64,000 nt of DNA from a virus (IMGVR_UViG_3300032236_000727:1906-65905); one strand, 5' to 3'; shown: positions 6,554 through 49,504, numbered from the stretch's first letter. Notes: generated from the sequence alone by a model not told the origin. Numbers and translations are program-made.

Positions 6554-6583
6554 AATAATGCAAAAATCAAAGACTTAGCGTCC
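6554..6583 (-). promoter_or_regulatory. Phage late-class promoter variant GGACG-N16-TGCATTATT
   Basis: Motif match driving the packaging operon. Confidence 0.7.
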
Positions 6584-21763: not shown

Positions 21764-21819
21764 GTAGCATACCCCACACGCCTATCGAAGAAGCGCAACC
21801 TTGTGGGGGTTTTAATCTA

Positions 21820-21899
21820 TGTCGCGAACGGGGTAGCTCCCCTGTTTGGTGCCAATTCACCAAACTAGCGACACCCATTAAACTAATTGGAGTTAAAAG
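21820..21899 (+). ncRNA. Structured leader RNA with an RBS-sequestering pseudoknot, copy 1
   Basis: Three-stem junction that covaries with 44182-44263. Confidence 0.7.
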
Positions 21900-22553
21900 A
21901 TGGTAATGACTAAAAGAGAAAGTGGTATTTTAGGCGCACTAAAAAGTAAAGAAATTTGTAAAAAACAAAAAGAAGAAAGAATTGCAAAATACAATTTGTC
22001 ACCTAAACGGTGTGCAAAATGTAATAAAGCTATTAAATACGAAAAAAGAATTAATATTTTTTGTTCACAGTCTTGTTCAGCCATTTACAACAATTTAAAA
22101 AGAAATTCTGATACGCCGGAACAATTTACAGCCACAAAAACAGTTGTCCCAAAAATAAAAATTAAGTTTAATTGCATTACATGTGACGCAATTATAAAAA
22201 CAAAACATAATAAGTACTGCTCTATTAAATGCCAACATGATTTAATTTTTAAACAAAAATTAGAAAATTGGTTGTCTGGAAATTTAATTAATGTCACCAA
22301 CAGATGGCTAAGACGTGCTTTAATTTTTGTAGTTGGAGACAAATGTTCTGTTTGTAATATAACAAATTGGCAAAATAAACCAATAGTTTTTGAAGTAGAA
22401 CATATAGACGGAAATAGCGAAAACAATAGTAAAGAAAATGTTTGCTTAATTTGTCCAAATTGCCATAGCCAAACCCCTACATATAAAGGGGCAAATAAAG
22501 GTAACGGAAGACATTTAAGAAGACAAAGATATGCAGAAGGTAAATCGTATTAA
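21900..22553 (+). CDS. HNH homing endonuclease with Zn-finger repeats
   Basis: FCSQSC, YCSIKC, EVEHIDGN..NN..EN..LICPNCHSQT; AT-rich insert next to the tRNAs. Confidence 0.85.
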   Translation: MVMTKRESGILGALKSKEICKKQKEERIAKYNLSPKRCAKCNKAIKYEKRINIFCSQSCSAIYNNLKRNSDTPEQFTATKTVVPKIKIKFNCITCDAIIKTKHNKYCSIKCQHDLIFKQKLENWLSGNLINVTNRWLRRALIFVVGDKCSVCNITNWQNKPIVFEVEHIDGNSENNSKENVCLICPNCHSQTPTYKGANKGNGRHLRRQRYAEGKSY

Positions 22554-22557
22554 CAAC

Positions 22558-22632
22558 TCCGCTGTAGCTCAGGGGTAGAGCGTTCCCCTTGTAAGGGAAG
22601 GGCCGTGTGTTCAAATCATACCAGCGGAACCA
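22558..22632 (+). tRNA. tRNA-Thr(UGU)
   Basis: Cloverleaf; anticodon loop CTTGTAA; TTCAAAT T-loop; encoded CCA. Confidence 0.85.
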
Positions 22633-22633
22633 A

Positions 22634-22709
22634 GGGGGTGTAGCTCAGTTGGGAGAGCGTTAGCTTTGCAAGCTAAATGTCGTCGGTTCGATCCCGTCCA
22701 CCTCCACCA
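22634..22709 (+). tRNA. tRNA-Ala(UGC)
   Basis: Cloverleaf; G3:U70 pair; anticodon TGC; GTTCGA; encoded CCA. Confidence 0.92.
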
Positions 22710-22727
22710 AATATTTAGGAGATAATT

Positions 22728-22877
22728 ATGGCAACTAAACCTGGACTTTACGAAAATATTCACAGAAAACAAGAACGTATCAAAGCTGGCAGCGGCGAGA
22801 AGATGCGCAAACCTGGCACTAAGGGCGCGCCCACTGCTAAAGCATTTAAAGAATCAGCTAAGACTGCTAAAAAATAA
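22728..22877 (+). CDS. Small basic protein (MATKPGLYENIHRK...)
   Basis: 49 aa, RBS AGGAG; below the ORF-track size cutoff. Confidence 0.7.
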   Translation: MATKPGLYENIHRKQERIKAGSGEKMRKPGTKGAPTAKAFKESAKTAKK

Positions 22878-23140
22878 TGGCAACTAAAAAGAACCCATCT
22901 CTATCTATTAACCGTGGTGAAAAGTTACCAGTGTCTAAAGGTGCCGGACTAACTGCCAAGGGTAGAGCTAAGTACAATGCAGCAACCGGATCAAATTTAA
23001 AAGCACCACAGCCACAAGGTGGTGCTCGTAAAGACTCATTCTGTGCTCGTATGTCCGGTGTAAAAGGCCCTATGAAGGACGAGAGTGGTAAACCAACACG
23101 TAAAGCAGCAGCACTAAAAAGGTGGAAATGTGGTAGCTAA
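22877..23140 (+). CDS. Small basic conserved phage protein
   Basis: GLTAKGRAKYN...LKAP...RKDSFCARM...RWKC. Confidence 0.75.
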   Translation: MATKKNPSLSINRGEKLPVSKGAGLTAKGRAKYNAATGSNLKAPQPQGGARKDSFCARMSGVKGPMKDESGKPTRKAAALKRWKCGS

Positions 23141-23525
23141 AAAAGCCCCAGCAAATAAAAAGCAATTTACTAAGGAAATGGCTGAGACCATTTTAGACCT
23201 TGGTAAACAAGGTGCTTCTCAAAAATCTATGTATGCTGCTATTGGTATCAGCAAGGCCACGGCAGCCAAGTGGAAACAAGATGATCCATTTTTTACCGAG
23301 ACTATGGATATGGCAACCACGTATGGTCAAAGTTTTTGGGAGATGATGCTTCTAGCTAATATCGACAACAAAACATTTAATAGCCGTGTTGCTGAAATTG
23401 CATTACGTGGACAGTACCCCGATGATTACAAGGACAATCGCGAGATCAAGGCAAACATCAAACAAGAAGTTACGGTAGACTTTCAAAAAGAAATTTCTGA
23501 GTTGATTGCCGCCCTAAAAATATAA
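23130..23525 (+). CDS. Putative terminase small subunit (HTH)
   Basis: HTH-like N-terminus (GASQK...IGISKAT...W) followed by a helical region typical of TerS. Confidence 0.5.
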   Translation: MVAKKAPANKKQFTKEMAETILDLGKQGASQKSMYAAIGISKATAAKWKQDDPFFTETMDMATTYGQSFWEMMLLANIDNKTFNSRVAEIALRGQYPDDYKDNREIKANIKQEVTVDFQKEISELIAALKI

Positions 23526-23547
23526 GTATTTATTTTCAGTTTTTAAC

Positions 23548-23585
23548 AAAAAGGCGCTCCAAAAGGGTGCCTTTTTTGCATTATT
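23548..23585 (+). terminator. Intrinsic terminator fused to the phage promoter box
   Basis: AGGCGCTC/GGGTGCCT stem; its U-tract continues directly into TGCATTATT. Confidence 0.65.
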
Positions 23586-23618
23586 ATATGTACAACTAAC
23601 CAGACTAAAAAGGCTAAA

Positions 23619-24752
23619 ATGACTGCACACGCACTTCTAAGCGCGTCAGGATCCAAACGATGGCTATCCTGTACACCCAGCGCCAGATTAGAGGCAACTC
23701 TTCCAGAACAAAAGAAAGGCGCAGGTGCCTTTGATTTCTCGCAAGAGGGCACTATGGCCCATACACTTGGCGAGATTAAACTAAGATACTATTATAATCA
23801 AATTGGAACAGAAGAGTATGAACAAGAGTACAAAGCGGTTAAAGAGTCATCCTATTACAATGACGATTTCGAGGCTAACGTCGACAATTATGTTTTATAC
23901 GTTCGTTCTCAAATCGGTGAAGGAGATACACCTTTATTTGAACAACGTGTTGACTTCTCTGATTGGGTGCCTGACGGGTTTGGCACGGCCGATGTGGTTA
24001 TACTTTCTAAGCACGCCATTCGAGTCATCGATCTTAAATTTGGAAAAGGCGTCCCAGTGTCGGCGATCGACAATACTCAACTTCGCCTTTATGCACTCGG
24101 TGCTTATGCCAAGTTTAAGGACGAGTATCCAGACATCAAAGAGGTCTCGTACACGATCCACCAGCCTCGCTTGGACAGCATTTCATCTGATGGAACAAGC
24201 ATCGTTAAGCTGGTCGATTGGGCAAATTACTTCGTTAAGCCTAAAGCCAAGAAAGCTTGGAGCGGATCAGGAGAATTTTTACCAGGAGAATGGTGTCAGT
24301 TCTGTCGTGCAAAAGCGCAATGCCGCGCCCGTAGCGACTTTAACACCGAACTTGCCAAACAAGAGTTCAAAGCGCCGCCGTTACTAGACGATGATGAAAT
24401 TAGTCTAGTACTCTCTAAAGCACAGAACTTACGCACCTGGGTCAATGATGTAGAAGAGTTTGCATTAAGTAGAGCGGTAGAGGAAAACATTGTACCACCA
24501 GGCTACAAACTCTCTACCACAGTAACCCACCGTAAGATCTCTGACAGCGCCTTAGCGGCCACCGTTTTAGTCGAGAAGGGTATGAGCCCAGAAATTATTT
24601 GGGAACCTCCTAAGCTCAAATCCATAGCAACCCTGGAAAAGCTAGGACCAAAGGGCCAAGTAGCCGCATGGCTAGGAGATTTGATTCAACGTCCAGAAGG
24701 ACAGCCTAAATTGGTCAAGGCCAAAGAGGACGCAACGGAGGATTTTAAATGA
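23619..24752 (+). CDS. DUF2800-family Cas4-like PD-(D/E)xK nuclease
   Basis: HALLSAS..RWLSC, EGT.AH, FGTAD, IDLKFGKG, QL.LYALGA, C.FC....C. Confidence 0.88.
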   Translation: MTAHALLSASGSKRWLSCTPSARLEATLPEQKKGAGAFDFSQEGTMAHTLGEIKLRYYYNQIGTEEYEQEYKAVKESSYYNDDFEANVDNYVLYVRSQIGEGDTPLFEQRVDFSDWVPDGFGTADVVILSKHAIRVIDLKFGKGVPVSAIDNTQLRLYALGAYAKFKDEYPDIKEVSYTIHQPRLDSISSDGTSIVKLVDWANYFVKPKAKKAWSGSGEFLPGEWCQFCRAKAQCRARSDFNTELAKQEFKAPPLLDDDEISLVLSKAQNLRTWVNDVEEFALSRAVEENIVPPGYKLSTTVTHRKISDSALAATVLVEKGMSPEIIWEPPKLKSIATLEKLGPKGQVAAWLGDLIQRPEGQPKLVKAKEDATEDFK

Positions 24753-24892
24753 GTACTTGGTTAATAGCAGCAATGGGTGTCGTGTATTTTGTCGTGGCGA
24801 TAGATCAATTTGTGAAAGGTGGTATTGGTACCGGCATTATGTTCCTTGGCTACGCCATGGGCAATGTTGGACTCGTCATGGTGGCAAAATAA
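24749..24892 (+). CDS. Small two-TM membrane protein
   Basis: 47 aa, MSTWLIAAMGVVYFVV...; RBS GGAGG. Confidence 0.6.
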   Translation: MSTWLIAAMGVVYFVVAIDQFVKGGIGTGIMFLGYAMGNVGLVMVAK

Positions 24893-24907
24893 CAATAAGA
24901 GGTACCT

Positions 24908-25165
24908 ATGATGGTAGAATGTTACGGCGCGGAGTTTGAAATTCCGGACGTATTAATTGACAAATTTCTTAAAGACTTTGATGGATTGCCTGGTAGTGGT
25001 CAGCGAGAAAGCATACTGCAGTTAAGAATGGCAATAGACGATATTTTGGATATAGTAGCAGAAGAGCCAGAAATTTTACACGAGTCAGCGTATCGGACAG
25101 ACTTTGTAAGAGCCTTGGCAATGCAGCAGGCAATGGGTGAATTGGGTATTTTGTACGACTCATAA
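24908..25165 (+). CDS. Hypothetical protein
   Basis: 85 aa, RBS GAGG. Confidence 0.65.
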   Translation: MMVECYGAEFEIPDVLIDKFLKDFDGLPGSGQRESILQLRMAIDDILDIVAEEPEILHESAYRTDFVRALAMQQAMGELGILYDS

Positions 25166-25168
25166 ATA

Positions 25169-25211
25169 TTTCACATTGTGAAACAAAAAAGTACCAAAAG
25201 TTTGCATTATT
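25169..25211 (+). promoter_or_regulatory. Phage middle-class promoter with an upstream palindrome TTTCACATTGTGAAA
   Basis: Perfect 7-1-7 palindrome 19 nt before TGCATTATT. Confidence 0.65.
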
Positions 25212-25279
25212 ATAAGTACGGGTAGACAGGCTGGCCCCGATTGAAGTCCAGTCTTAATGTTAAAAAGGTAATAATCACT

Positions 25280-25798
25280 ATGGCATCAAAATCAATTAAG
25301 ACCAAGTTTGTAACTGGTAAAGTACGTTTCTCTTACGCTAACGTTTTCACACCAGGCGAGACACCTAACGGTACTTTAAAGTACTCTGTTTCTATCCTGA
25401 TTCCAAAATCAGATACAGATACTGTTAATCGCTTTAAGAAAGCATTTGAGGACACCAAGACAGCTAATGCAACTGTATGGGGCGGCTCAATTCCTAAGAC
25501 ACTTAAAGGCGGTTTGCGTGATGGCGACGCTGAGAAGGATGATCCAGCATACGCAGGTCACTACTTTATCAACGCTAGCTCCAATGAAAAACCTGGTATT
25601 GTTGACGCTGATTTAAACCCAATCATTGACACTAGCGAGTTCTACTCTGGTTGCTATGGTCGTGCCTCAATTACATTGTATCCATACGATACAAGTGGCT
25701 CTAAGGGTATCGCTGCTGGTTTGAACAACGTGCAGAAATTAGCTGATGGTGAGAAGTTTGGCGGTTCTACAACCGCAGCAGCAGACTTCGCAGTTTAA
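25280..25798 (+). CDS. DUF2815-family single-stranded DNA-binding protein
   Basis: VRFSYAN, KYSVSILIPK, LRDGD, YSGCYGR, GIAAGLNNVQK..DGE. Confidence 0.88.
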   Translation: MASKSIKTKFVTGKVRFSYANVFTPGETPNGTLKYSVSILIPKSDTDTVNRFKKAFEDTKTANATVWGGSIPKTLKGGLRDGDAEKDDPAYAGHYFINASSNEKPGIVDADLNPIIDTSEFYSGCYGRASITLYPYDTSGSKGIAAGLNNVQKLADGEKFGGSTTAAADFAV

Positions 25799-25815
25799 TT
25801 GTTGTTGTAGTGCTA

Positions 25816-25850
25816 GGGAGTGTCCGTAGAAACTGCGGCCTCCCTTTTTT
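25816..25850 (+). terminator. Intrinsic terminator after the SSB gene
   Basis: GGGAG...CTCCC stem followed by a T-tract. Confidence 0.55.
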
Positions 25851-25879
25851 GTCAACCCATCACCTAAAGAATAATAATA

Positions 25880-27754
25880 ATGGACCAATATCAAGAGTAC
25901 ATTGCAGCTAGCCGATATGCCCGATTCGTTGACGAAAAAGGTCGACGTGAAAATTGGGGTGAAACAGTAGACCGTTACGTTGACTACATTTTTAGCCGTA
26001 CGCCAGCAATACAAGAAAACAAAAAATTAAAATCAGAAATTCGTAGTGCCATTTTTAACCTAGAACTTATGCCGTCCATGCGAGCCATGATGACAGCAGG
26101 AAAGAGTGCCGATCGTGACAATACTTGCGTCTATAATTGCTCGTATCTCCCAGTGGATGATGCCAAAAGTTTTGACGAAGCCATGTTCATTTTGCTTTGC
26201 GGAACTGGTGTTGGATTCTCAGTTGAATCCAAGTACATTAACCGTTTGCCCGAAGTGCCAGAAAAGTTGTTTGATTCAGAGCACACCATCGTCGTACACG
26301 ACAGCAAGGAAGGCTGGGCAAAATCATTGCGTCTACTCCTCGCCCACCTCTGGTCCGGAGAAATCCCTCGATGGAATGTTGAGTCCGTCCGCCCCGCCGG
26401 AGCACGACTCAAAACTTTTGGTGGAAGAGCTTCCGGGCCGCAACCATTAGTAGATTTATTTGAGTTTGCTGTTGCTATGTTTAAAGGTGCAAAGGGTCGC
26501 AAGTTAAATTCCCTTGAGTGCCACGACTTGATGTGTAAAATTGGTGAGGTAGTTGTAGTCGGTGGTGTTCGCCGATCTGCTATGATATCATTATCAGACT
26601 TAGACGATGAGAGGATTCGATATGCCAAAGCAGGACCATGGTGGGATACTGCACCGCATAGAGCGCTTGCAAACAATAGCGCAGTCTACAATGAGACGCC
26701 AACTGTTGGAAAGTTCATGGAAGAGTGGTTGTCACTCTACAACTCCCACTCAGGTGAGCGCGGCATCTTTAACAGAGAAGCTGCTAGAAAAACAGTCGAA
26801 AAATATGGTCATCGAGATCCCAACTATGAGTTCGGAACAAATCCCTGCTCGGAAATCGTTCTTCGCCCGTATCAATTCTGCAATCTTTCGGAAGTGGTGG
26901 TAAGACATAATGACACAAGGGAAACCCTCCTGCGCAAAGTGCGCCTCGCCGCTATCTTGGGTACCATCCAGTCTACCTTCACCAAGTTCCCCTATTTGCG
27001 CAAGGTGTGGCAGAGAAATACTGAAGAGGAGCGGTTACTGGGTGTTTCCCTCACCGGAATCTATGATAATCCCCTTCTCACAACCCAAGGAGACAAACTA
27101 AATGAATTACTTACCGAACTTCGAGAGGAGTCTAGACGAGCCAACGAGGAGTTTGCAGAGTTGCTTGGAATACCTAAGAGTGCTGCGATTACTTGCGTTA
27201 AGCCCAGTGGAACCGTCAGCCAACTCGTTGATAGCGCTTCTGGAATCCACCCTAGACACTCTAAATTCTACATCCGTAGAGTTAGAGGAGATAAGAAAGA
27301 CCCTCTCACCCAATTCTTAATTGAACAAGGAATCCCAAATGAAGCATGCGTTTATAAACCAGATCAGACGGTGGTGTTTAGCTTTCCTCAAAAAGCACCC
27401 GCCGGTATCACTAGATCAGACGTATCTCCTATTGACCATCTCGGACTATGGCTTACGTACCAACGGTTCTGGTGTGAGCATAAGCCTAGTGTCACAATCT
27501 CAGTCGAAGAAAAAGACTGGCCAAGTGTCGGAGCCTGGACGTGGGACCACTTCCAAGAAATCAGCGGCGTCAGCTACCTCCCGTACGATGGCGGCACTTA
27601 CCGCCAAGCCCCGTACGAAGAGTGCAGCGAAGAGCAGTACAACGGCCTCAAAGCAAAAATCCCAAGCATCAACTGGGAAGACTTTAAGGAAACCACGGAC
27701 AACGTCGAAGGCGCGCAGCAATTAGCCTGTAGTGCTGGAGTCTGCGAAGTTTAA
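25880..27754 (+). CDS. nrdJ: Class II (B12-dependent) ribonucleotide reductase
   Basis: PSMR, YNCSY, GGVRRSA, TNPCSE, TCVKPSGT, C-terminal CSAGVCE; no beta subunit present. Confidence 0.92.
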   Translation: MDQYQEYIAASRYARFVDEKGRRENWGETVDRYVDYIFSRTPAIQENKKLKSEIRSAIFNLELMPSMRAMMTAGKSADRDNTCVYNCSYLPVDDAKSFDEAMFILLCGTGVGFSVESKYINRLPEVPEKLFDSEHTIVVHDSKEGWAKSLRLLLAHLWSGEIPRWNVESVRPAGARLKTFGGRASGPQPLVDLFEFAVAMFKGAKGRKLNSLECHDLMCKIGEVVVVGGVRRSAMISLSDLDDERIRYAKAGPWWDTAPHRALANNSAVYNETPTVGKFMEEWLSLYNSHSGERGIFNREAARKTVEKYGHRDPNYEFGTNPCSEIVLRPYQFCNLSEVVVRHNDTRETLLRKVRLAAILGTIQSTFTKFPYLRKVWQRNTEEERLLGVSLTGIYDNPLLTTQGDKLNELLTELREESRRANEEFAELLGIPKSAAITCVKPSGTVSQLVDSASGIHPRHSKFYIRRVRGDKKDPLTQFLIEQGIPNEACVYKPDQTVVFSFPQKAPAGITRSDVSPIDHLGLWLTYQRFWCEHKPSVTISVEEKDWPSVGAWTWDHFQEISGVSYLPYDGGTYRQAPYEECSEEQYNGLKAKIPSINWEDFKETTDNVEGAQQLACSAGVCEV

Positions 27755-27759
27755 AAGTA

Positions 27760-27812
27760 TTTCACATGGTGGTAGTTTGGGGCTCCTTCGGGAGCCTCTT
27801 TTTTGCATTATT
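27760..27812 (+). terminator. TTTCACATGGTGGTA box, UUCG terminator hairpin and fused phage promoter box
   Basis: GGCTCC-TTCG-GGAGCC, T-tract running into TGCATTATT. Confidence 0.7.
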
Positions 27813-27850
27813 GTATATACGCCGATACGTCGGATTGCCTAAGGAGCATT

Positions 27851-29794: not shown

Positions 29795-32700
29795 TTACTT
29801 CTTTTTCTTTTTAATCTTGCCGCCACGCTTTTTGGTAATATCGGGATCTAGCGGGTTGTAGGTTCCGATGTTACCTGTGGCGGATTTTAATTGAGTAGGT
29901 TCAAAAACATTTATATCACCAGTTTTTAAAGCATGAATCGCGTCATACCCAGCTTCTTTAGCTTTTTGTATTACCTCAGCATCCGATAATTTTGTACCCG
30001 TTGGATCAAAATGCCTAAAAAATTCTTCATGTGATTTGTTTATGTCAGATATAACAAAAGGATTTTTAACGGAAACATGAAGCGGTAAAACATTTGGGTA
30101 TGATTCTTTATCCGGTCTTATTATACCTGTGTATTCGCTTGCTGTTTCTGGATTTAAACTAACATAATGTCCGGGACCCATAGCCCCAATTCTTGATGGT
30201 TTAAATTCTTTTATATCTGCACCAGTGCCATGGTACACACGATCTTTAATTGCACTTCCTTCTAAAAACTTAGCTTTGTTAGCCTCCCGCTCAACGAGAG
30301 GCATTACCTTTTTTGCTAACGTCTCCAATGCGCTAACCACTTTACCACCAGGTGCGTAACCCTCAACAGCACCACCCTCAGCCTTCATAAAGTCAGGGTT
30401 GGCTGCCTCTTCTGGATTGTACTTTGCAAACTTGCCACGGATGTTTTGTGGTTCAAATACACCAACGTTTTTAATGCCACCTTCTGTTACGCTAAAAGTG
30501 TCGTGGCCTGTATCTTTTAAATGTTGTATCAATGATGGTGATTCTAACGTTCTCCAATTGTTAATTGGGTCCATCAATTTGTCCATCATGTGTTCGTGTT
30601 TTTTACTTATAATTTCATCAAAGTCTGGCGTAGCCGCTTCTTTTGCGTATCTTTTTGCCAAGTAATCTTTTACAATTTGCTCACCCTCTGGTGTAGATGG
30701 ATCAAAATGTTTGCCTAAGTTAACGCTAACCGGATACATAGTAGAACCAGTTTTAAAACTTTTTTGAGGAACCAATTCACCAGATTGCAAACTGTAGTAA
30801 GGTTTGCTTCCAGGGTTTAAAAAAGATTCAGCAAATTGTGGTTTTGGTGTTACAAAAGTAATCCCTGGAGTAATAAACTCCTCACTTTTTTTAGACTTAC
30901 TTGGATCAAACACCTTAATACTTGGTGATGGACTGCCATGATAAAAGCCAGGGGTAAACTTCTTTTTAAACTCTTCTACAGCAGACTTCATTACTTTACC
31001 ACCGGGCGCGTAACCAGACGCTTGAACTGCTTTAACATAGTCCTCAGTAATTGGCTGAGTTAAAATGTTGCGTGATAGGTGCATAGAGGTCACGTCAGGC
31101 TTTTTGCCCTTAGCAATATTACCCTGACGAATAGCTTCAATGGCATCAGGGTAACCAACCTCTTTCGGTACTGGAGCAAATGAATGTCCTAGATCTTTAC
31201 CAAATAGCGCATAGTCAAAAGCGTTATGTAGATCCGGGCGATACTCTGGAGCTCTTTCGTTTAATGTAAACAGACGAGTTCCAATAGACTGTGTAGGTGC
31301 ACCAATGGTATTAGGATCACGAGCAGCGCCAAGAACATCTTCCCAGTTAAAAATCTGACCTTTTTTGCCACCGAGCTGAACACCTGTTGGACCTTTGCCA
31401 CCCATAATGTCAGCTAATGCAGCACGTTGGTGAAATAGCTTAGCGTTTTCTTCTAACGCAGCGCGGTCACGAATATCAAACTGCTCTGGGAATGTAGTCA
31501 TCATTCCCTTATTAGTCTTGTACGTTGATGCCTTCATAGCATCTTGATACTTTTGTAATAGTTCTGGATCTAATTTACCTGCGGCAATAGCCTTATAAAA
31601 CTCATCGGTAAGATCGCCAAATACGGAACGGTTTGTTTTGAGTTGGGTAGGAGAGCCAAGAAGGCCGGTGATAATCGCGTTACCATCGTTTCTTTGACTT
31701 ACATTATGAAGACGCTTGGCTGCTGCCATGCTGTCGTTTGCAAATACCCAATCCTCTGCCTTGTGCAAAGGACTGATATTTTGTAGGTTAGACGCTTCTG
31801 GACCACCCATTTTACCAAGTGGTAGGTCTACCTTAGTGGTGTCTACAATGGTCGGATGTAATACTTTACCAATGTAGTTCTGAATAATGTCGCTATACTT
31901 TTTTGCCCCTTCTGCGACTTGGGGCGCGGCCTTTTTTAATACTGCACCACCCGGAGCAAAGTTTTGAACTGAGCCACCAGCATTTTTATTGATGTTGCTA
32001 GTATCCTCTTGTGTATCTGGCAAAAAGTATTGGAGTGCTGGAACACCAGCAGATAATGCAGTACCAATAGCACGAATAGGTTTGATCTTAGACTGACTGG
32101 CTACTCCACCAAGAGCGCCAAGTCCGCTTAATGCAGCACGACCATAGTTACCCTTTTCGAGTTCTTCTTTAACATTACCAAGCTCACCACCAGCAACACC
32201 CATGCCAAGCATGCGACGTGCCATACCAGGTTTGCCTAAACGCTCGCCCTCAATAATATTAGTGGCAGCCTTTTTAGCTAAAGTTGGCTCTTGAACTTCT
32301 AGTTGATTAGTAATACCAAGACGGCCTTTACGAATAGGCACTTCTGATCCGCGTGACTTAACTGGTTTACCACGAGCAATTTCTGATTTTAAATAAGCCT
32401 CTTCTTTAGTCTTACCACCAGCGTATGGATGACCTGTCTCTTGTTTAAGCCAGCTAGTAACACCTTTAGGTGCTCCAAGTTCAGCCTCAGATACAGCAGT
32501 AGGGGCAATCTTTTTAGCTAAGTATTCAAGAACAGCATCTGTAGCACCGCCAACTTGAGAACCTAAAGCAGAACCAGTAGCAGCGCCTAATGCTGTTCCA
32601 ACAGCTGGCGCTGATATCATATCATCTACACCCAATACACCACTAATTTTATCACCAATACTTTGGCTTGGCTCATCCAAACCGGCAAGATAGCTTAACT

Positions 32701-32827
32701 GATTCTCTTTTGAGTGACCAGCCTCTTCTGCAGCCTTTATATCGTAATTGTGTAGCTTAGCTAAATAGGCTAATTGATCATCAATTGAATGACCGGCCTC
32801 AGTAGCTGCTTGAGTATCGTATGCCAT
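29795..32827 (-). CDS. Polyvalent injected protein with two ART-like (ADP-ribosyltransferase fold) domains
   Basis: FYHGS...VFEPQNI and VYHGT...GPGHY...GYDA...VFEPTQLKS domains, separated by YAPGG motifs. Confidence 0.7.
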   Translation of the reverse strand: MAYDTQAATEAGHSIDDQLAYLAKLHNYDIKAAEEAGHSKENQLSYLAGLDEPSQSIGDKISGVLGVDDMISAPAVGTALGAATGSALGSQVGGATDAVLEYLAKKIAPTAVSEAELGAPKGVTSWLKQETGHPYAGGKTKEEAYLKSEIARGKPVKSRGSEVPIRKGRLGITNQLEVQEPTLAKKAATNIIEGERLGKPGMARRMLGMGVAGGELGNVKEELEKGNYGRAALSGLGALGGVASQSKIKPIRAIGTALSAGVPALQYFLPDTQEDTSNINKNAGGSVQNFAPGGAVLKKAAPQVAEGAKKYSDIIQNYIGKVLHPTIVDTTKVDLPLGKMGGPEASNLQNISPLHKAEDWVFANDSMAAAKRLHNVSQRNDGNAIITGLLGSPTQLKTNRSVFGDLTDEFYKAIAAGKLDPELLQKYQDAMKASTYKTNKGMMTTFPEQFDIRDRAALEENAKLFHQRAALADIMGGKGPTGVQLGGKKGQIFNWEDVLGAARDPNTIGAPTQSIGTRLFTLNERAPEYRPDLHNAFDYALFGKDLGHSFAPVPKEVGYPDAIEAIRQGNIAKGKKPDVTSMHLSRNILTQPITEDYVKAVQASGYAPGGKVMKSAVEEFKKKFTPGFYHGSPSPSIKVFDPSKSKKSEEFITPGITFVTPKPQFAESFLNPGSKPYYSLQSGELVPQKSFKTGSTMYPVSVNLGKHFDPSTPEGEQIVKDYLAKRYAKEAATPDFDEIISKKHEHMMDKLMDPINNWRTLESPSLIQHLKDTGHDTFSVTEGGIKNVGVFEPQNIRGKFAKYNPEEAANPDFMKAEGGAVEGYAPGGKVVSALETLAKKVMPLVEREANKAKFLEGSAIKDRVYHGTGADIKEFKPSRIGAMGPGHYVSLNPETASEYTGIIRPDKESYPNVLPLHVSVKNPFVISDINKSHEEFFRHFDPTGTKLSDAEVIQKAKEAGYDAIHALKTGDINVFEPTQLKSATGNIGTYNPLDPDITKKRGGKIKKKKK

Positions 32828-34731: not shown

Positions 34732-34733
34732 GA

Positions 34734-35651: not shown

Positions 35652-35653
35652 GA

Positions 35654-37375: not shown

Positions 37376-37419
37376 ATTACAGTTAAGCTATCTAAATTAG
37401 GTTAAGTTCTTCTATATAC

Positions 37420-37449
37420 AATAATGCAAAAATAAAGGGGTCGGCGCCC
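37420..37449 (-). promoter_or_regulatory. Phage late-class promoter GGGCG-N16-TGCATTATT
   Basis: Motif match upstream of the ejection-protein operon. Confidence 0.75.
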
Positions 37450-37452
37450 CAA

Positions 37453-37704
37453 TTATTTGCTTGGACCGTTGATTATTAAGGTAAATTCGTTAGCCCAGTC
37501 CTGCCAACTCCCGTAGGTGCTAGGGTCAGGAATAGGGTAAACAGCAAACGCTTCTGAGTTAAGAAGGTTAAATGCCCCTTGTTGCCAATTCTCTTCGGAG
37601 ACAAACTCAATGTTCTTTTGGCCGTAGTAAATAGCCAAATTACCGTTCCAATCTTCCCAGCTCATATAGTCTGGAAGACAAGGAAAAAACTGTTGAAAAC
37701 TCAT
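37453..37704 (-). CDS. Small tail-associated protein
   Basis: 83 aa directly after the nozzle-like gene. Confidence 0.6.
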   Translation of the reverse strand: MSFQQFFPCLPDYMSWEDWNGNLAIYYGQKNIEFVSEENWQQGAFNLLNSEAFAVYPIPDPSTYGSWQDWANEFTLIINGPSK

Positions 37705-39852
37705 TTAAGGCCTTTCGTCCCCAAACTCAGCCGTTATCAAATTACGCCCCATTTCAAAGTTACCGTCAATCTCATTAGATTCAAACTTTAAACGAACTAA
37801 ACGGTGTTCAACACGTAGGTCAATTTTACCAGTTTCTTGAGTAAAATAATAAGGACCAGAGTTCTCTTCATTTTGACCACCAGCAAACTTACGACCTAAA
37901 ATGGTCAATGCCATAGTGCCAGATTGTATAAAGTTTGGTTCAATACGACGTAGGTGCATACGGCGGTTTACACCGACTAAATTATCACCAGATGGGCTAC
38001 CAGTTAACCAGCTAATATCACTGGTTGTAATGCTAGAATAAATAGCCTCTTCAGTACCCAGTGTGACCATATTAAGTCCAAACTCATGCTGCCAAATTGC
38101 ATAACCACCAGTCACATTGTACACTGTTTGACCAACGTTAGCACTTGGAGAAATCACTTTATCAACAGTAACCAAAGTAACACCTGGTGTACCAATAGTC
38201 GTATTAAAGATGTTTTGGCTAGCAGTAATTCGATAAACAGTATCTTGTGGAACCGTTGAAAATGACACATAATCACCAGGGCTAAATAGTGGTGTTAAGT
38301 CACCCGCAACATAAAACTGTTTTGATGTGGGCGCTGGCAAACTAACTGGATGCGCAATCACATAATTAGGTTGGTTATACATAGGGTTGTATTCCCAACC
38401 AGCCCAAATAGGCGTTGGAAACAGCTCAGTAGTATAACCACAAGAACGGCGTGCACCTACTGCGGAGCCAGCATCATACCAAAGTTTATCTTTGACGTTG
38501 TAGATAATAGCATCAGTACATTCTGTTGCTGTACCGCGGGGATAAAAGAACCAAATCTCGTTATACCTTGGAATCTTAGTAGCCCAAACTTTTTGTCTTT
38601 GTTCATAATTGATATTGTTAAATAACCAATTAATATTTTTATCGTTTGGTAAAACTTGGACGTTACCGTTGTACAAATAGAAACGGTCAACACCCATCCA
38701 GAAAAAGATACCATCCATCTCAACAACTGCATTGGAAGACATGATAGAGATTTGGCTTGAAACAATATCATAGTTCCAATAAAACTGAGTTGCTTGTGAA
38801 TTAAAGGAAACACGAATAAGTGAGTCAGTAGCCCAAAACAAACCTGATGGAGAGGCAGTGCCTCCGCGCATTGGCATACCCTTAACAATCTTAGAGCTCG
38901 ACACGTTTACTTGGTTGGCTAATGGGCCGTTCCAATCATAAAAGTTTTGATTGGTGTACGTAGCATCTACGTTGTTATTGGCAAGAAAACCGTGTGAGCC
39001 ATATACAAAAATAAATGGATACAATACACACACCCCACCATCAACACTAATTGGTTTATAGGTAGGGTTTTGACCTTGGCTATCGCACAGGCCAGAAAAG
39101 AAGTACGTGTTGTTTGAATCTGGTGTTACGTTACCTGCTAATACTTGAGTCGTTACACCGTTGTCAATATTGACCAGGTTTAAACCAGGGTGTGCAAAAC
39201 AAGACAACGCTCCACCTTGTGGGCTAAATTGCGCGTCAAACTGCCAGTCATTCCGATATGGGCCATTTACTGGATCAGGTGTAAAGATAGTATCATTTGT
39301 CCAGATCTTGCTAATAGTTCCAGCTGGTGCTGCGGGGGTAAACGTAATGGTAGTTTGACTTGGCCCTGTGGTATGAACCGATGTGGCAATTGTATAAACT
39401 GTTGGTGTGCCAGTTTGACTAAGAATAAAAGTTTTGGTCGGCGCAAAAGTAGTCGTGGCATCACCGGGCACAATCACTTGGGTTGTGGTATTTGATGTTA
39501 CATTAGCAAATACAGAACCACGAAGAAAGTCAACAGTAAATGGACCACTGCCAGAACTAAAAGACGTACCAGTTGTAAAAACATCTAAGGTCTCCGCGTT
39601 ACCGGCAAAAACGTAGTTAACACCGTTATACGGTATGGCAATCATGCCACGGTAAATACCATTAAACGCTGTGAAAATGGTCTTATAACCACCCATCTTT
39701 TTAGGGTCACCACGTTGAAAACGACACCATACACCATCTGTGTATTGGTCGTTTTGAAATACTGTACCGTCGCGTTTAATCCCAGCCGGTATTGCTAGGC
39801 TGTAGATGGATGTATATTGCGAGGTGTCTTGTTGCTGATTATCAGCGGCCAT
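37705..39852 (-). CDS. Tail nozzle / stabilisation protein (P22 gp10-like)
   Basis: 715 aa, beta-rich; RFQRGDPKKMGG, FFWMG..FYLYNG, NEIWFFYP. Confidence 0.65.
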   Translation of the reverse strand: MAADNQQQDTSQYTSIYSLAIPAGIKRDGTVFQNDQYTDGVWCRFQRGDPKKMGGYKTIFTAFNGIYRGMIAIPYNGVNYVFAGNAETLDVFTTGTSFSSGSGPFTVDFLRGSVFANVTSNTTTQVIVPGDATTTFAPTKTFILSQTGTPTVYTIATSVHTTGPSQTTITFTPAAPAGTISKIWTNDTIFTPDPVNGPYRNDWQFDAQFSPQGGALSCFAHPGLNLVNIDNGVTTQVLAGNVTPDSNNTYFFSGLCDSQGQNPTYKPISVDGGVCVLYPFIFVYGSHGFLANNNVDATYTNQNFYDWNGPLANQVNVSSSKIVKGMPMRGGTASPSGLFWATDSLIRVSFNSQATQFYWNYDIVSSQISIMSSNAVVEMDGIFFWMGVDRFYLYNGNVQVLPNDKNINWLFNNINYEQRQKVWATKIPRYNEIWFFYPRGTATECTDAIIYNVKDKLWYDAGSAVGARRSCGYTTELFPTPIWAGWEYNPMYNQPNYVIAHPVSLPAPTSKQFYVAGDLTPLFSPGDYVSFSTVPQDTVYRITASQNIFNTTIGTPGVTLVTVDKVISPSANVGQTVYNVTGGYAIWQHEFGLNMVTLGTEEAIYSSITTSDISWLTGSPSGDNLVGVNRRMHLRRIEPNFIQSGTMALTILGRKFAGGQNEENSGPYYFTQETGKIDLRVEHRLVRLKFESNEIDGNFEMGRNLITAEFGDERP

Positions 39853-41262
39853 TTAAAACGATCCACCAGTTATTAACCCAGCTGTTAAAGTCCCGGTAAT
39901 ATTTGCCGAACCAGCACCTAATGCGTTGGTGATAGTTGCTGAATCAGCGCCTAATGCGTTGGTAATGGTTGCTGAATCAGCGCTTAATGCACCACTAACT
40001 GTTGCTGTAGTAGTATTAATTGTTGGAACATTTAATGTTGCTGCAACTGTTACTAATGGCTGTAATACATTTGAATTATCTATATTGATAATCTCAGTGC
40101 TATTAGCAGACAATCCAAGTACACTAGTACCAACTAGATACATACCTGTGTGGGTATCACCAGTAAATGAATACGATGGTAATCCTGCAGAACCGTTAGA
40201 CGCGTAGAAAATACCTGTTGAGCTTTGAGTTAAAGTGTATAGATTTAAACCATCACTAAGCACAACCACCACACCACCAGCGGCTAATACCAATGGCGGC
40301 TGTGAACTACCAGATACCACAAAGTTAATATTGTAGCCTGTTTGATTAGTATTATTAACCAAAATGTAGATTTGGGTAATGGATGGTAAAGTGACAGTCA
40401 ATGTGGTTGAACGTGAACCAGACTGTGCAATGTATGTTTGAATGATTGGCGCATAAGCTACTAAGCTTAATGTTGAGCCAGGGATACTATCCACATCATA
40501 AGTTGCTGATGTAAAGGTTACATTTGACGGGGCTGTAAAGCCAACGGTAATAAAGTTACCAGTGTTACTATCATAAATAACATAGCCTGAGTCGCCAGGG
40601 TTAGCTGTAATAGTAGCTTGTCCGTTAATGACAGACGGGGAAACTGGAGTAATAGCTAATGCGCCACCACCATTGTTTCTAAAGCCAATATACCAACCAG
40701 ATGATAGGCTACTTGCAACTGGTAGGTTTATTACACCGTTACCAGTGTTCCAGTTAAATGTGGAAGCGCGGCTAAGATCGTTTAATGTTGGTGTAGCTGT
40801 AATGTCAACAACGTTCTGTGTGGTTGCTAGCTGACCAGATACGGTTGTCAAGCCAGCACCTTGCAGTGTTACTGCATCAGCGTATGATGTACCAACTCCA
40901 AAAGCAATGTTAGACCAACTACCACCTAGAGTAGTGTTATTAGTAAGATAGAGATACTTAGCAGCGCCAACAGCAACGGTAATTGATTCAGCTCCAGCCG
41001 CGTCCGTAATAGTGAACGGAAACGCACCCAAATTGCGGAATAGGATGTCTGATCCAACCGCGCCTTGAGTAGCATCAGGTAATAAGATAACAAGACCGCT
41101 AACACTAGCAACGCAATCCATAATGCGGGCTGCAGGAACTTGTGTAGGATTAACGACAGTAGGCCAGTAGAGCTGAGTGTTGGAACTAAAGTTGAGAGCA
41201 TAGTATGATACATCCGTAGGTTGGATGACATTGCCTGTGAAGGGGGAAGTGTATGTTGTCAT
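39853..41262 (-). CDS. Virion structural (tail) protein
   Basis: 469 aa, Thr/Ser/Gly-rich, in the tail operon. Confidence 0.6.
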   Translation of the reverse strand: MTTYTSPFTGNVIQPTDVSYYALNFSSNTQLYWPTVVNPTQVPAARIMDCVASVSGLVILLPDATQGAVGSDILFRNLGAFPFTITDAAGAESITVAVGAAKYLYLTNNTTLGGSWSNIAFGVGTSYADAVTLQGAGLTTVSGQLATTQNVVDITATPTLNDLSRASTFNWNTGNGVINLPVASSLSSGWYIGFRNNGGGALAITPVSPSVINGQATITANPGDSGYVIYDSNTGNFITVGFTAPSNVTFTSATYDVDSIPGSTLSLVAYAPIIQTYIAQSGSRSTTLTVTLPSITQIYILVNNTNQTGYNINFVVSGSSQPPLVLAAGGVVVVLSDGLNLYTLTQSSTGIFYASNGSAGLPSYSFTGDTHTGMYLVGTSVLGLSANSTEIINIDNSNVLQPLVTVAATLNVPTINTTTATVSGALSADSATITNALGADSATITNALGAGSANITGTLTAGLITGGSF

Positions 41263-41265
41263 ATA

Positions 41266-41886
41266 TTATGGCTCTTGTACTGTAGTGTTTCTATCCACAC
41301 GACGAGCGTTATCTTCTTTCTTAAGAGCAGCTAGTGCGTCTGTGTAATAAGATTTCCACACAGGAAGCTTGTCAAGAGCTTTGAGGTAGCCCTGTGCTTG
41401 GAGTAGTGTTCCAAATAACATCGCCTGTGGCGCTTCTCTAGTAAATAGATTTTGCTGATTGGTTGTATCTAACGGCTGAATTTCGCTGTAGTAAATTATT
41501 TCCACTGGCGTTGCTGCAGCAGGTGCTGGTGCAATCGACCAGTTATTGTAGTCATATTCGGCGTAATAAAGAGGTGTTGCTGGTGTAGACTCAGATTGAT
41601 ACTGAGCTACATAATCTTGTGAGCGCATTAAAATAGGTTTGCCGTTTGACTTTAGTGAAACTGTTTTTCTCCAACGCGCTGGCTTAGCTACAACAACTTG
41701 GTTTTGAGCCAGTGTTGTTTCAACAACGGTCAACTGCAAATAGGTTTTAAGTTCAGCAGCAATAGCAGATTCAGCCAAACCAATTAAGCTAGGAATCTGA
41801 GCGACAAACTGCGCGTCATTACGTTCCATGTAATTTTGCACATCGGATACCAAATTGTCGTAGGTCATTACGTATGCGTTGGTCAT
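41266..41886 (-). CDS. Head-tail adaptor-like protein
   Basis: TYDNL...I.LAE...APAP...P..LFGTL..A pattern. Confidence 0.6.
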   Translation of the reverse strand: MTNAYVMTYDNLVSDVQNYMERNDAQFVAQIPSLIGLAESAIAAELKTYLQLTVVETTLAQNQVVVAKPARWRKTVSLKSNGKPILMRSQDYVAQYQSESTPATPLYYAEYDYNNWSIAPAPAAATPVEIIYYSEIQPLDTTNQQNLFTREAPQAMLFGTLLQAQGYLKALDKLPVWKSYYTDALAALKKEDNARRVDRNTTVQEP

Positions 41887-42950
41887 CTTGTGTAGTAACT
41901 GATGTTAGGTTGGAAATAAATCGGCGATTTGTCGCGATCTTCTTCGCTAGCTTGTATAAATGCTTTTTCAGCCTGCATCTCTAAATACTGAACACGCGCC
42001 ATATCTGTGCCAGGTAATTGTAATGATAGGCTATGAGACAATTGTTTTTGGACACAGTTTAGCCAACGATCTGGAACATAAATTTGATTGGTCAACGAGC
42101 CAACGTCTTGCATCTGAACTTCAACAACTAATTGGAACATTTGAAAATCGTTGTTAGGAACTGGCCATAGATACATTGATGGCTCAATTTGTCTGTCAAA
42201 CCAATATTGCAATGAACGTACTGATGGAAACTGTTTGTTTGGTAAGTTCCAGTAATCATCGCGGTTTAAGCGAGCTAATGGAATGACCTGTTGGCTAGTA
42301 GAAAATACAATCTGACGTATTGAGAACGTGGGTAACACGGTCTCACGCAGACGATAGTATTGATAGTTTGGTGTAGTGGAGATATTAAAGTACTTCCACT
42401 CACGATCTTTTAATGTAGTCGCTGGAAACTGTTGGATTAATGTCCAAGTAATTCCATCGTTACTGACTTCATAAGCAAAGTTATAAGTTGTTGTACCACC
42501 ACCAGTAGCATAGCCATTAAAGCCAACATAAAACACCGGGCGTGGCTGTGGGTATGTTAGACCAAAGTAATTCTCACCAACGGTTGATGTAGCAACTTGG
42601 TCTAAATTTTGATCAAATACTGTGGGTGATTGTGCGTTGTCAACTGGAAGATACGCGGATGCAGCTGAGTTAACAATATAGACCCAGTTTGACTCACGTA
42701 CGTCGATAACTGTTTTAGGTAGGACTAGTTGTTGTTGCGCTGTTAAAGCGCCGTAGAGTTGATTTTCTAACAGCCAAAGGTTTACACCACGGTTAGATAA
42801 ATTTTGTAAGTTGTAAAACAAAGCCTGTTTGGCCGCGTTTGTATACTCAGGCGTCATTTCCTCGGCCTGTTTTCCAGCCTCACGAAATGCGTATGAAATT
42901 AGTTGATCAACATTGACTGTTGTCTGACCAGTCGTCCCAGAATAAGCCAA
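41883..42950 (-). CDS. Head-tail adaptor (P22 gp4-like) with an inserted beta domain
   Basis: NRGVNLW, Y..LPNK, LWPVP, EEDRD motifs. Confidence 0.6.
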   Translation of the reverse strand: MAYSGTTGQTTVNVDQLISYAFREAGKQAEEMTPEYTNAAKQALFYNLQNLSNRGVNLWLLENQLYGALTAQQQLVLPKTVIDVRESNWVYIVNSAASAYLPVDNAQSPTVFDQNLDQVATSTVGENYFGLTYPQPRPVFYVGFNGYATGGGTTTYNFAYEVSNDGITWTLIQQFPATTLKDREWKYFNISTTPNYQYYRLRETVLPTFSIRQIVFSTSQQVIPLARLNRDDYWNLPNKQFPSVRSLQYWFDRQIEPSMYLWPVPNNDFQMFQLVVEVQMQDVGSLTNQIYVPDRWLNCVQKQLSHSLSLQLPGTDMARVQYLEMQAEKAFIQASEEDRDKSPIYFQPNISYYTR

Positions 42951-42952
42951 GA

Positions 42953-43120
42953 TTATCTTCCTCGTCCGGCAGATTTTTTCATTACTTTTTGTGGCAGATT
43001 AGGCTTTGCTTTGCCAGCTTTAACAAACTCTTTACCAACCTTTTTAGGGATGCCTAAAGTAGACTTGCCAGCGGCTGCAGCGTACATAGCCTTCATTTGA
43101 TCTTTACTGGTCATTGGCAT
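42953..43120 (-). CDS. Small basic virion-associated protein
   Basis: [13 protein letters not shown]...[13 protein letters not shown]. Confidence 0.6.
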
Positions 43121-43121
43121 A

Positions 43122-43643
43122 TTACTTTGCCTTTCCGCCAAGCATCTTGGCAAGTTTAGAACCTGATTGTGCTTGCTTATCTAAATTTTCTTGAGCGACT
43201 TTGTTTTGCTCTGGTGTACCAAGAATGTTGTTCTTAATATCTGTACCAACAGATTTAACAGTATCTAAAAAACTGCCACCAGCTGCATACTTACCACCCA
43301 TGCAGAGTTTAGTAGCTTTAATCTTTTTGGTCTTTTCAATGTTGTCTAAATCACCAGCTTTTTTCTTGGCACCATAAACATTATCTACAGAGCCACCAGC
43401 TTTAAATTTTTTAACTGTGCCTACAGACTTTTTCGCACGACCGCCCTTTTTAAGTTTGGATAGGTCTGTGTGCTCACCCTTGTGTTCCTGTTCGTCATGG
43501 ATACGGATAGCCTTTTTGACAATAGCCTTATCCTGTGCAATATCAGCAGAGTTTGTCTTTTCTACAGATTTGCGTGATTTGTATTTAACAGCGCCGCCCT
43601 CTTTGTAGCAGCCCATTTTAGGATTTGATTTAAAATCTTCCAC
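43122..43643 (-). CDS. Basic internal protein with repeated xKxGG/YAAGG motifs
   Basis: YKEGG, LKKGG, FKAGG, LCMGG, YAAGG. Confidence 0.65.
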
Positions 43644-43644
43644 T

Positions 43645-44181
43645 TCACTTCCCCTTTTGATAACTTATAACATCATTTACTAATTGTATGAGATGTTCAA
43701 TTCCATGTGAGCCTAACGCACAATTTAATGATGTAACTATTATGCGACAATTATTTTTAGTATATCCTAAATTTGAATCTATTCTATCAATCGAAGGAGA
43801 ATCCGGGTGGGTTTTGTGATTTCCTAATTGAGTAAAATTAAATTTTCTTCCGCTTAATTCACAAGTTTCTTCTTCTAACTTTTTTAAAACCCAATCCAGT
43901 GTTAAATCAAATTCTCTATTATATTTTGAAGATCTGTATTTTGCTTTATTTAAAAGTGCTTTTGCGCGGCCAAGTATAGTTTTTCTTGATTTTGCTTGAG
44001 CTTCTTTAGTTAAAATTTTATGTAATTCTTTTTTGTTTTTAAATTTTAAAGGACTTAACCATGTTTCATGGGTAAATCCATCTTTTTTAATTGGTGGTGT
44101 ATACCCCCAAAATAAAAAACCATCTTTTCGTATTTTACCTCTAACAAAAGGTTTCCCGGTATCCGGGTCTAATCTTTTCAT
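43645..44181 (-). CDS. HNH-type homing endonuclease-like protein
   Basis: CELSG...PSIDRIDSNLGYTKNNC; AT-rich; likely ATG at 44181 after a GGAG RBS. Confidence 0.75.
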   Translation of the reverse strand: MKRLDPDTGKPFVRGKIRKDGFLFWGYTPPIKKDGFTHETWLSPLKFKNKKELHKILTKEAQAKSRKTILGRAKALLNKAKYRSSKYNREFDLTLDWVLKKLEEETCELSGRKFNFTQLGNHKTHPDSPSIDRIDSNLGYTKNNCRIIVTSLNCALGSHGIEHLIQLVNDVISYQKGK

Positions 44182-44263
44182 TTTTAACTCCACAGTAGTT
44201 TAATATGTGGAAGCTAGTTTGGTTCTGTGGTCCAAACAGGAGCTGCAGGCTCTGTTCACTTCC
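44182..44263 (-). ncRNA. Structured leader RNA with an RBS-sequestering pseudoknot, copy 2
   Basis: Same architecture as 21820-21899 with compensatory changes. Confidence 0.7.
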
Positions 44264-44270
44264 TATATAC

Positions 44271-44300
44271 AATAATGCACAAAATCAAGGATTTACGCCC
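44271..44300 (-). promoter_or_regulatory. Phage late-class promoter GGGCG-N16-TGCATTATT
   Basis: Motif match; overlaps the TAG stop of the lysozyme gene. Confidence 0.75.
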
Positions 44301-48187: not shown

Positions 48188-48205
48188 ATAAGTATATTCC
48201 GTTAA

Positions 48206-49486: not shown

Positions 49487-49504
49487 ATAAGTATATTCCG
49501 TTAA

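Follow-up and report, generated by a model that had tools for sequence, protein, structure and literature searches.

A conserved RNA leader predicted to mask the ribosome-binding site of nuclease-family genes in mobile phage cassettes

The 64,000-nucleotide (nt) stretch IMGVR_UViG_3300032236_000727:1906-65905, hereafter the window, carries two copies of a structured RNA element of ~85 nt, which we call the leader, each placed in front of a nuclease-family gene. At least 31 distinct leader sequences from the window and its phage relatives fold into one architecture, in which two hairpin loops are exact complements of each other and the second of them overlaps the Shine-Dalgarno (SD) sequence of the following gene. 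We propose, with a probability of roughly 0.6, that the leader is a cis-acting RNA at the 5' end of a mobile nuclease cassette and limits translation by masking the SD. The window covers 64 kb of a virus record that is complete at 65.9 kb and has direct terminal repeats. The source phage is uncultured and comes from a lake, and the window codes for portal, terminase, primase, helicase, DUF2800 exonuclease, a Gp2.5-like single-stranded DNA (ssDNA)-binding protein, ribonucleotide reductase, PolA, a sigma factor and tail genes.

The first copy occupies 21820..21902 on the plus strand. Helix P1 is formed by TGTCGC (21820-21825) and GCGACA (21868-21873) and leads through junction strand J1/2, GAAC (21826-21829), into P2, where GGGG (21830-21833) pairs with CCCC (21839-21842) around the loop UAGCU. 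Helix P3, GTTTGGTG (21844-21851) with CACCAAAC (21858-21865), displays loop L3, CCAAUU (DNA CCAATT), at 21852-21857, and the junction is completed by J3/1, UA. Behind the linker at 21874-21880 stands a further hairpin, P4, with AACU (21881-21884) paired to AGUU (21891-21894) and the loop L4, AAUUGG, at 21885-21890; read as DNA, ATTAAACT at 21877-21884 runs into AATTGG and then AGTT. The SD, GGAG, lies at 21889-21892 and the AUG at 21900-21902. The second copy, at 44179..44263 on the minus strand, follows the same plan, with P1 GGAAGT 44263-44258 and GCTTCC 44214-44209, J1/2 GAAC, P2 GAGC 44252-44249 and GCTC 44243-44240 around the loop CUGCA, and P3 GTTTGG 44237-44232 and CCAAAC 44222-44217 enclosing a 9-nt loop that contains CCACAG (44230-44225). 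J3/1 is again UA, the linker spans 44208-44201, and P4 pairs AACU (44200-44197) with AGUU (44189-44186) around the loop ACUGUGG (44196-44190), which holds CTGTGG at 44195-44190; the SD GGAG is at 44191-44188 and the AUG at 44181-44179. Both assignments come from a parse of the individual sequence. In RNAfold the three-way junction is the minimum free energy (MFE) fold of copy 1 (-24.5 kcal/mol, z -3.87) and of the 5' part of copy 2 (-15.8 kcal/mol, z -1.62). Every stem that a first-pass annotation of the window had listed for the two copies was found in place, and the complementarity it had drawn between the P3 loop and the SD-side hexamer holds in both, extending with the relatives to 31/31 sequences and 17 loop codes.

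A covariance model of the leader, R1, finds exactly two places in the window, copy 1 at 76.0 bits and copy 2 at 80.8 bits, and the string TGTTTGG..CCAAACTAGC is found at two places in the window and in 0 of 100 shuffles. A third copy was rejected after a search with the filters off, in which the best other match, at 21.7 bits, was the antisense of copy 1. Another candidate, ATTCAACT..GGGAGT at 60926-60902 (minus strand), is a plain intercistronic hairpin and not a member.

Relatives of the leader were sought in eight IMG/VR contig scans and in the full records behind the resulting loci. A scan of metagenome contigs returned 16 loci, 12 of them real and four due to chance. A nhmmer profile separated members (E <=2e-6) from noise (E >=0.0026), and R1 gave 42 matches at or above 57.9 bits with the next at 24.4 bits. 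Divergent members were recovered from low R1 scores (loci L468, L538 and L008:2427-2513), and a search of the full records added another, G013:25527-25611, which is L579. All examples stem from pattern scans seeded on the window, so the sample is biased and the counts, including the 31 distinct sequences, are lower bounds. Beyond these loci, comparison of each leader with 50,697 phage records by blastn gave chance-level pieces only, and a pattern scan of 185,579 bacterial species genomes matched seven loci, none of them real by a covariance model R2 (all <18 bits). Megablast with 12 kb of the window matched no cultured relative of the phage, and its primase is only ~30% identical to its relatives, which are found in Proteus and Salmonella phages.

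Each of the 31 distinct sequences resolves into a three-way junction P1-P2-P3, a linker and the SD-bearing hairpin P4. Across the parses P1 has 3-8 base pairs (bp), P2 2-5 bp, J2/3 0-2 nt, P3 6-8 bp, L3 6-9 nt, the linker 7-10 nt (13 in one parse), P4 3-5 bp and L4 6-7 nt, and the start codon follows P4 after a spacer of 4-8 nt (11 in L446). J1/2 is mostly GAAC or GAAA, and UA separates P3 from the 3' strand of P1. In most members the three-way junction is the RNAfold MFE structure of the 5' part. The model alignment comprises 30 distinct rows; 90.7% of its helix cells pair, compared with 69.3 +/- 0.9% in shuffled alignments (0/500 reach the observed value) and at most 49.8% when the partners are slid, and 27 of 28 pairs have changed on both sides. 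By helix, pairing is 96.2% in P3, 96.0% in the loop-loop contact, 99.2% in P4, 86.5% in P2 and 76.1% in P1; values for P1 (72-76%) are too low because the MAFFT and model alignments mis-register this helix by one column in two subgroups, the copy-1 group and a group with a bulged P1; the fold was instead read from the parse of each single sequence. G-U pairs are restricted to the sense strand, as in the eight U-G at the last pair of P1, which shows that the structure is formed in RNA. The compensatory changes in every helix, together with this strand restriction, bear out the earlier proposal that the element acts at the RNA level.

The covariation of P4 changes the picture of the contact itself. 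P4 is AACU/AGUU in most members, GAGC/GCUC in L538, UAGC/GCUA in L468 and UUAUC/GAUAA in the second L008 copy, and all four of its pairs have changed on both sides. The first-pass annotation had proposed a pseudoknot between the P3 loop and the SD-side hexamer. That pairing stands, and its form does not: the 3' partner is the loop of a covarying 3-5 bp helix, so the contact is a kiss of two hairpin loops and not an H-type pseudoknot. Few unpaired positions are kept in all members, roughly the GAA of J1/2 and the UA of J3/1. The linker is A/U-rich and single-stranded, and the word AUUNAACU within it is kept in most members, partly in L579 and not in L468, L538 or the second L008 copy. The P2 loops hold a self-complementary word of 4-6 nt (AGCU, UGCA, GGCC, CGCG, UCAUGA or UAAUUA) in 10/12 distinct loops, where chance predicts 2.4 +/- 1.3 and 0/10,000 random sets reach 10, although several of these loops share descent and the independent events are therefore fewer than the fraction implies. 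Such a word is present in 1/17 L3 loops, and one natural variant, L377, is without P2.

L3 and L4 contain a contiguous exact complement in every member, of 6 nt in 27 and 7 nt in four. The distinct kiss codes include CCAAUU/AAUUGG, CCGAUU/AAUCGG, CCACAG/CUGUGG, CCCUACA/UGUAGGG, CUCCAU/AUGGAG and CUUACU/AGUAAG. When loops are mixed between classes, only 9/272 combinations form six or more pairs, and where one record carries two leader copies (the window, G001, G006 and G013) their codes always differ. In most members the GG of GGAG sits in the 3' end of L4, within the kiss, and the AG at the start of the 3' strand of P4, in agreement with the annotated covering of the SD by structure; the SDs of L538 (GGAGG), L468 (GAGG) and the second L008 copy (AAGGA) lie partly or wholly in L4. 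The GGAG is presumably the working SD, as the same word 7-9 nt 5' of ATG recurs at other gene starts of the phage, and an SD-like word is present at 27/51 mechanically chosen starts. Freed from the structure, the site looks strong, with GGAG, an A/U-rich spacer of 5-7 nt and AUG, often followed by AAA.

We next consider the genes behind the leader. Copy 1 precedes an HNH-type gene of 217 amino acids (aa) at 21900..22553 on the plus strand (phrog_10822 'HNH endonuclease', E 8e-24; weak Pfam HNH_3, E 0.031), and copy 2 precedes a nuclease-like gene of 178 aa at 43645..44181 on the minus strand (phrog_3322 'endonuclease', E 3e-25; PHROGs of the EndoVII and HNH kinds match more weakly, and Pfam gives no match). 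BLASTP finds no similarity between the two proteins (E 7.4), which fall into PHROG 10822 and 3322, so that the annotated difference in nuclease type holds. Listing the genes behind the covariance-model members gave five nuclease families. A nuclease-family open reading frame (ORF) follows 28/31 leaders, three of the 28 being assigned through near-identity to a scanned protein. Seventeen belong to phrog_3322 'endonuclease' (16 scanned, one near-identical to a scanned protein), three to the phrog_10822 HNH family (two scanned), five to phrog_2633 / Pfam Endonuclease_7 (PF02945; scanned), two to phrog_655 HNH with NUMOD3/NUMOD1 (one scanned) and one to phrog_2255 HNH (scanned). The other three leaders are followed by a scanned 102-aa ORF of no family, by a translated 20-aa ORF, and by an ORF lost at the contig end. 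The 102-aa ORF, behind the second L181 leader, matched no PHROG or Pfam family and gave noise-level Atlas matches only (<=0.81). Thirteen of the downstream phrog_3322-type proteins are 22-44% identical to the first of them, and an alignment of 13 copy-2-type relatives contains no invariant His. A profile of this family against solved structures reached PacI at E 0.65 only, which is not significant, and the nuclease activity of the phrog_3322-type proteins is for both reasons best regarded as putative.

Genome comparison shows that leader and ORF move among the relatives as one cassette. Loci that bear the leader are all 65-90% identical to the window backbone and, among the loci collected, belong to relatives of one phage lineage, with cassettes at six or more different backbone places. 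These are the interval between 21467 and 21473 (L444, L442 and L453), 21812-22553 (copy 1, L008 and L010), the position behind the lysozyme gene (copy 2 and others), the interval between the portal and terminase genes (L133, L400, L401 and others), that between 23507 and 23609 (L579 and the second L008 copy) and two further backbone places. In L444, L442 and L453 the insert starts within ~3 nt of P1 and ends at the stop codon of the ORF, and the window site is empty there. L133 and L400 share the same backbone and a near-identical leader in front of unrelated ORFs, homology breaking at the ATG and returning after the stop. The leader is also better conserved than its surroundings, with 97.6% identity between the window and L010 (flanks 72-80%) and 85.7% to L453 (flanks 69-76%). 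The element had been called portable from its two copies, and the same leader before five nuclease families, with leader plus ORF at different backbone sites, supports that description. From their family names and presence/absence polymorphism, the ORFs are probably homing endonucleases.

L008 carries a divergent second leader at 2513-2427 (minus strand), with P3 GCCAGUG/CACUGGC, kiss CUUACU/AGUAAG and P4 UUAUC/GAUAA. Its 20-aa ORF terminates at the SD of the DUF2800 gene, and the site is that of the full EndoVII cassette in L579; the copy is probably what remains of an EndoVII cassette similar to the L579 one. In the window, two transfer RNA (tRNA) genes at 22558-22706 (plus strand) directly follow nuclease gene 1, and L444-type relatives have neither nuclease gene, leader nor tRNAs at this site.

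In the mechanism we favour, the three-way junction displays L3, an anti-SD loop beginning with CC or CUC. At 7-10 nt past the closure of P1, the 3-5 bp hairpin P4 displays L4, and the two loops pair over 6-7 bp. The kiss takes the GG of GGAG and P4 its AG, which would leave the ribosome-binding site buried and lower translation. As the fold is self-contained, a low output would be set wherever the cassette lands.

A number of observations weigh against this proposal. As plain duplexes the kisses have modest energies, from -3.7 to -9.7 kcal/mol, so masking of the SD may be partial. For the whole of copy 2 the nested MFE structure (-19.1 kcal/mol), from a program that gives kisses no score, favours a different SD-masking helix, in which the 3' strand of P1 and the linker pair with the SD. 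Of the four nuclease-like ORFs in the window, 18000-18638 (plus strand) and 61962-61504 (minus strand) have no leader. It is present at 8/80 of the best loci for relatives of the copy-2 protein, the other 72/80 being without it. The bias of scans seeded on the window has to be kept in mind as well. Finally, the strong ribosome-binding site, the elaborate junction and the self-complementary P2 loops suggest more than a passive brake, and sequences alone give no ON state.

Where transcription starts bears on several alternatives. A promoter-like repeat, GCATTATTGTATATAGG, abuts P1 of copy 2 at 44262..44278 (minus strand) and is one of 11 GCATTA.T[AG]TA copies in the window; the first bases of these repeats, TTGCATTATT[GA]TA, are at 6561, 11967, 19660, 21361, 23578, 25204, 27805, 37427, 44278, 61482 and 61976. 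Most leader copies follow a repeat of the form TTGCATTA.T.TA..TAGG that ends where P1 begins, and copy 1 and the L444-type copies are without it. The repeat at 25204-25220 ends where a match to the DUF2815 RNA starts (25219), from which we infer that transcription begins at about the first G of P1, and the leader RNA would accordingly start with this helix. Promoter scans for the phage repeat and for sigma-70-like sites found neither type within the leaders between L3 and L4.

This last result is relevant to temporal control of the T4 type, in which a late promoter inside the structure gives rise to transcripts that lack the 5' arm and have a free ribosome-binding site. Such control is documented for I-TevI and proposed for I-TevII, I-TevIII, segB and Aeh1 mobE in the relevant passages of PMC2988022. 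In the leader, however, the phage promoter repeat lies upstream of P1 and never between L3 and L4, a sigma-70-like site is absent inside both window copies, and linker and P4 leave only ~12 nt from P1 to L4. With neither of these two promoter types inside the leader the internal-late-promoter solution probably does not apply, and we consider this explanation very unlikely. The start at P1 could also point to a role in stability, processing or dimerisation, with a 5' P1 protecting the mRNA, cleavage of the linker parting L3 from L4 and turning translation on, or P2 loops joining two molecules. P1 does begin at the inferred transcription start, the linker (AUUNAACU in most members) is single-stranded and A/U-rich, 10/12 P2 loops are self-complementary, and RNase E processing is described near some T4 homing-endonuclease genes in the same passages of PMC2988022. 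Yet these roles leave the match of L3 to the SD loop in 31/31 sequences unexplained, and in copy 1, L444 and L538, which have no adjacent promoter, P1 lies inside a longer transcript. We therefore regard them as distinctly improbable. A DNA-level function, as a recombination or homing site, an operator or a cruciform, might be suspected from the position of the leader at the 5' border of the cassette, from the exchange of ORFs behind a near-identical leader in L133 and L400, and from P2, which is close to a DNA palindrome. However, the helices conserve pairing and not sequence, G-U pairs occur on one strand only, loop-loop complementarity is meaningless in duplex DNA, and the start codon always stands at a fixed distance; such a function is extremely unlikely.

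A conditional switch, in which a protein or small ligand at the three-way junction makes or breaks the kiss, is possible but in our view unlikely. It could take the form of a riboswitch or of autoregulation, the two ideas of the first-pass annotation, or of a branched RNA bound by the nucleases. A ribosome-binding site that is strong yet masked would suit a switch, as would the conserved J1/2 (GAA.) and J3/1 (UA), the nearly constant linker length and the confinement of the collected leaders to one phage lineage, which would fit dependence on a factor specific to that lineage. Among the ORFs, several belong to the Endonuclease VII type (Pfam PF02945), a family that binds branched DNA. On the other hand, few unpaired positions are invariant across divergent members, no Rfam riboswitch matches, no candidate regulator was identified, and the occurrence of one leader before five unrelated protein families argues against sequence-specific autoregulation. 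A more speculative, improbable variant is that the leader is an active cassette-borne module, in which the junction, acting as a mimic of branched DNA, would bind the junction-recognising nuclease that follows, giving a generic structure-based negative feedback across unrelated nuclease families, with P2 loops that might pair two leaders. If true, the leader would stand for a hitherto undescribed kind of RNA regulator dedicated to selfish nuclease genes. Two other candidates were discarded. For a self-cleaving ribozyme (hammerhead, twister, pistol or hatchet) there was no Rfam match at E up to 10, and with junction strands of 4, 1-2 and 2 nt the leader departs from the hammerhead core. A leader peptide is not indicated, as the L444-type copies do not preserve the short reading frame opened by an ATG at the 5' end of copy 1. 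Masking of the SD by the kiss remains our preferred explanation.

The surroundings of the leaders contain further features. Upstream of copy 1 lies a terminator-like hairpin, CCCCACA..UGUGGGG followed by UUUU (21772..21812, plus strand), with a large loop and a U-run, which was not called by the terminator scan and matches the abiF RNA at 31.1 bits (cut-off 37); it is conserved in L008 at 4023-3986 (abiF RNA 27.5 bits, cut-off 37). At 6561, 19660 and 61976 the repeat leads directly into the ATG of the following ORF, an arrangement suggestive of leaderless mRNAs, and a twelfth, degenerate repeat, GTATTATTATAATTAGA at 3829, likewise meets the ATG of ORF 3812-3204. A phage sigma factor gene (phrog_351) is located at 10437-11057. 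The DUF2815 RNA (RF03084) at 25219-25282 (plus strand, 76.8 bits) stands behind its promoter repeat and 5' of the Gp2.5-like ssDNA-binding protein gene, and is also present in L008 at 785-725. The intercistronic hairpin at 60933-60902 (minus strand), CUCCUAA/UUAGGGAG with loop UUCAACUC, links the stop of ORF 61376-60924 to the SD of ORF 60902-60597 in what looks like translational coupling, and its 3' half resembles the linker-P4-SD stretch of the leader. The first 113 residues of ORF 18000-18638 (plus strand) match the phrog_3322 family; this ORF overlaps the start of the helicase ORF (18220-19671) in another frame, and its origin could lie in a fusion, in a frameshift or in the decay of a cassette. 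At 46892-50785 (minus strand) there are three tandem paralogues of ~430 aa (phrog_2295) with tail-fibre-like N-termini, two of which share identical 25-nt upstream regions, and 29795-32827 (minus strand) encodes a protein of 1010 aa whose C-terminal domain is an ART-PolyVal ADP-ribosyltransferase (Pfam PF18760, E 1e-24).

Is the leader a known RNA? At the gathering thresholds of Rfam 15 the whole window gave the DUF2815 RNA and two tRNAs only, with no match to the leader; a local search over the leaders at E up to 10 gave chance-level matches of at most 15.6 bits, and four loci with divergent members gave none. We found no description of the motif in the literature searched. The first-pass annotation had allowed for a catalogued but uncharacterised motif, and this is not borne out for any Rfam 15 family, while the lists of unnamed candidates that accompany one survey (PMC10690425) may contain the leader. 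The main texts of that survey and of another large one (PMC5737381) mention no nuclease-linked motif, and their unnamed supplementary candidates may include it. The leader is a candidate new Rfam family.

In several riboswitches, among them SAM-II/SAM-V, preQ1-II, glutamine-II and guanidine-III, the SD lies on a downstream strand that pairs with a hairpin loop. The leader differs from these in having no Rfam match, a second hairpin loop as the 3' partner, few unpaired nucleotides that are invariant, and nuclease genes downstream where the riboswitch genes are metabolic or encode transporters. Loops of 6-7 nt paired over their full length are known from ColE1 RNA I/RNA II, HIV-1 TAR-TAR* and L2-L3 of the purine riboswitches. 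The purine riboswitches also share the three-way-junction scaffold of the leader, their kiss organising a ligand pocket, and the ColE1 kiss is an antisense contact between molecules. In contrast, the kiss of the leader is intramolecular and apparently hides an SD. Its 17 orthogonal kissing pairs on one scaffold form a natural set that could serve RNA design. The DUF2815 RNA occurs in the same type of phage and, like the leader, directly behind the same promoter repeat, but it consists of one hairpin, whose loop is conserved, precedes an ssDNA-binding protein gene and is unrelated in sequence and fold.

The closest parallel is found in the T-even phages. In their homing-endonuclease genes (I-TevI, I-TevII, I-TevIII, segB and Aeh1 mobE) a consensus SD ~8 nt 5' of the AUG is buried in RNA structure, which limits translation, as set out in the passages of PMC2988022 on these genes. 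The leader resembles these cases in that the SD of a putative phage homing-endonuclease gene is paired within the RNA, a pairing kept in 31/31 sequences. The T-even structures are, according to the same passages, simple local hairpins, each with its own sequence, relieved by internal late promoters (PMC2988022). The leader by comparison is a conserved family with a three-way junction and a kiss, precedes five nuclease families, is carried by the cassette and contains neither the phage promoter repeat nor a sigma-70-like site. What is known of how homing-endonuclease expression is controlled comes almost entirely from T4-like phages, with an ad hoc hairpin for each gene. The leader would instead be a portable conserved RNA module that travels with the gene and places a kiss over the ribosome-binding site, and it offers a model for how selfish nuclease cassettes may bring their own expression control to any insertion site. 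The principle of sequestering the ribosome-binding site is thus known from the T-even phages, and the leader is a new structured form of such control.

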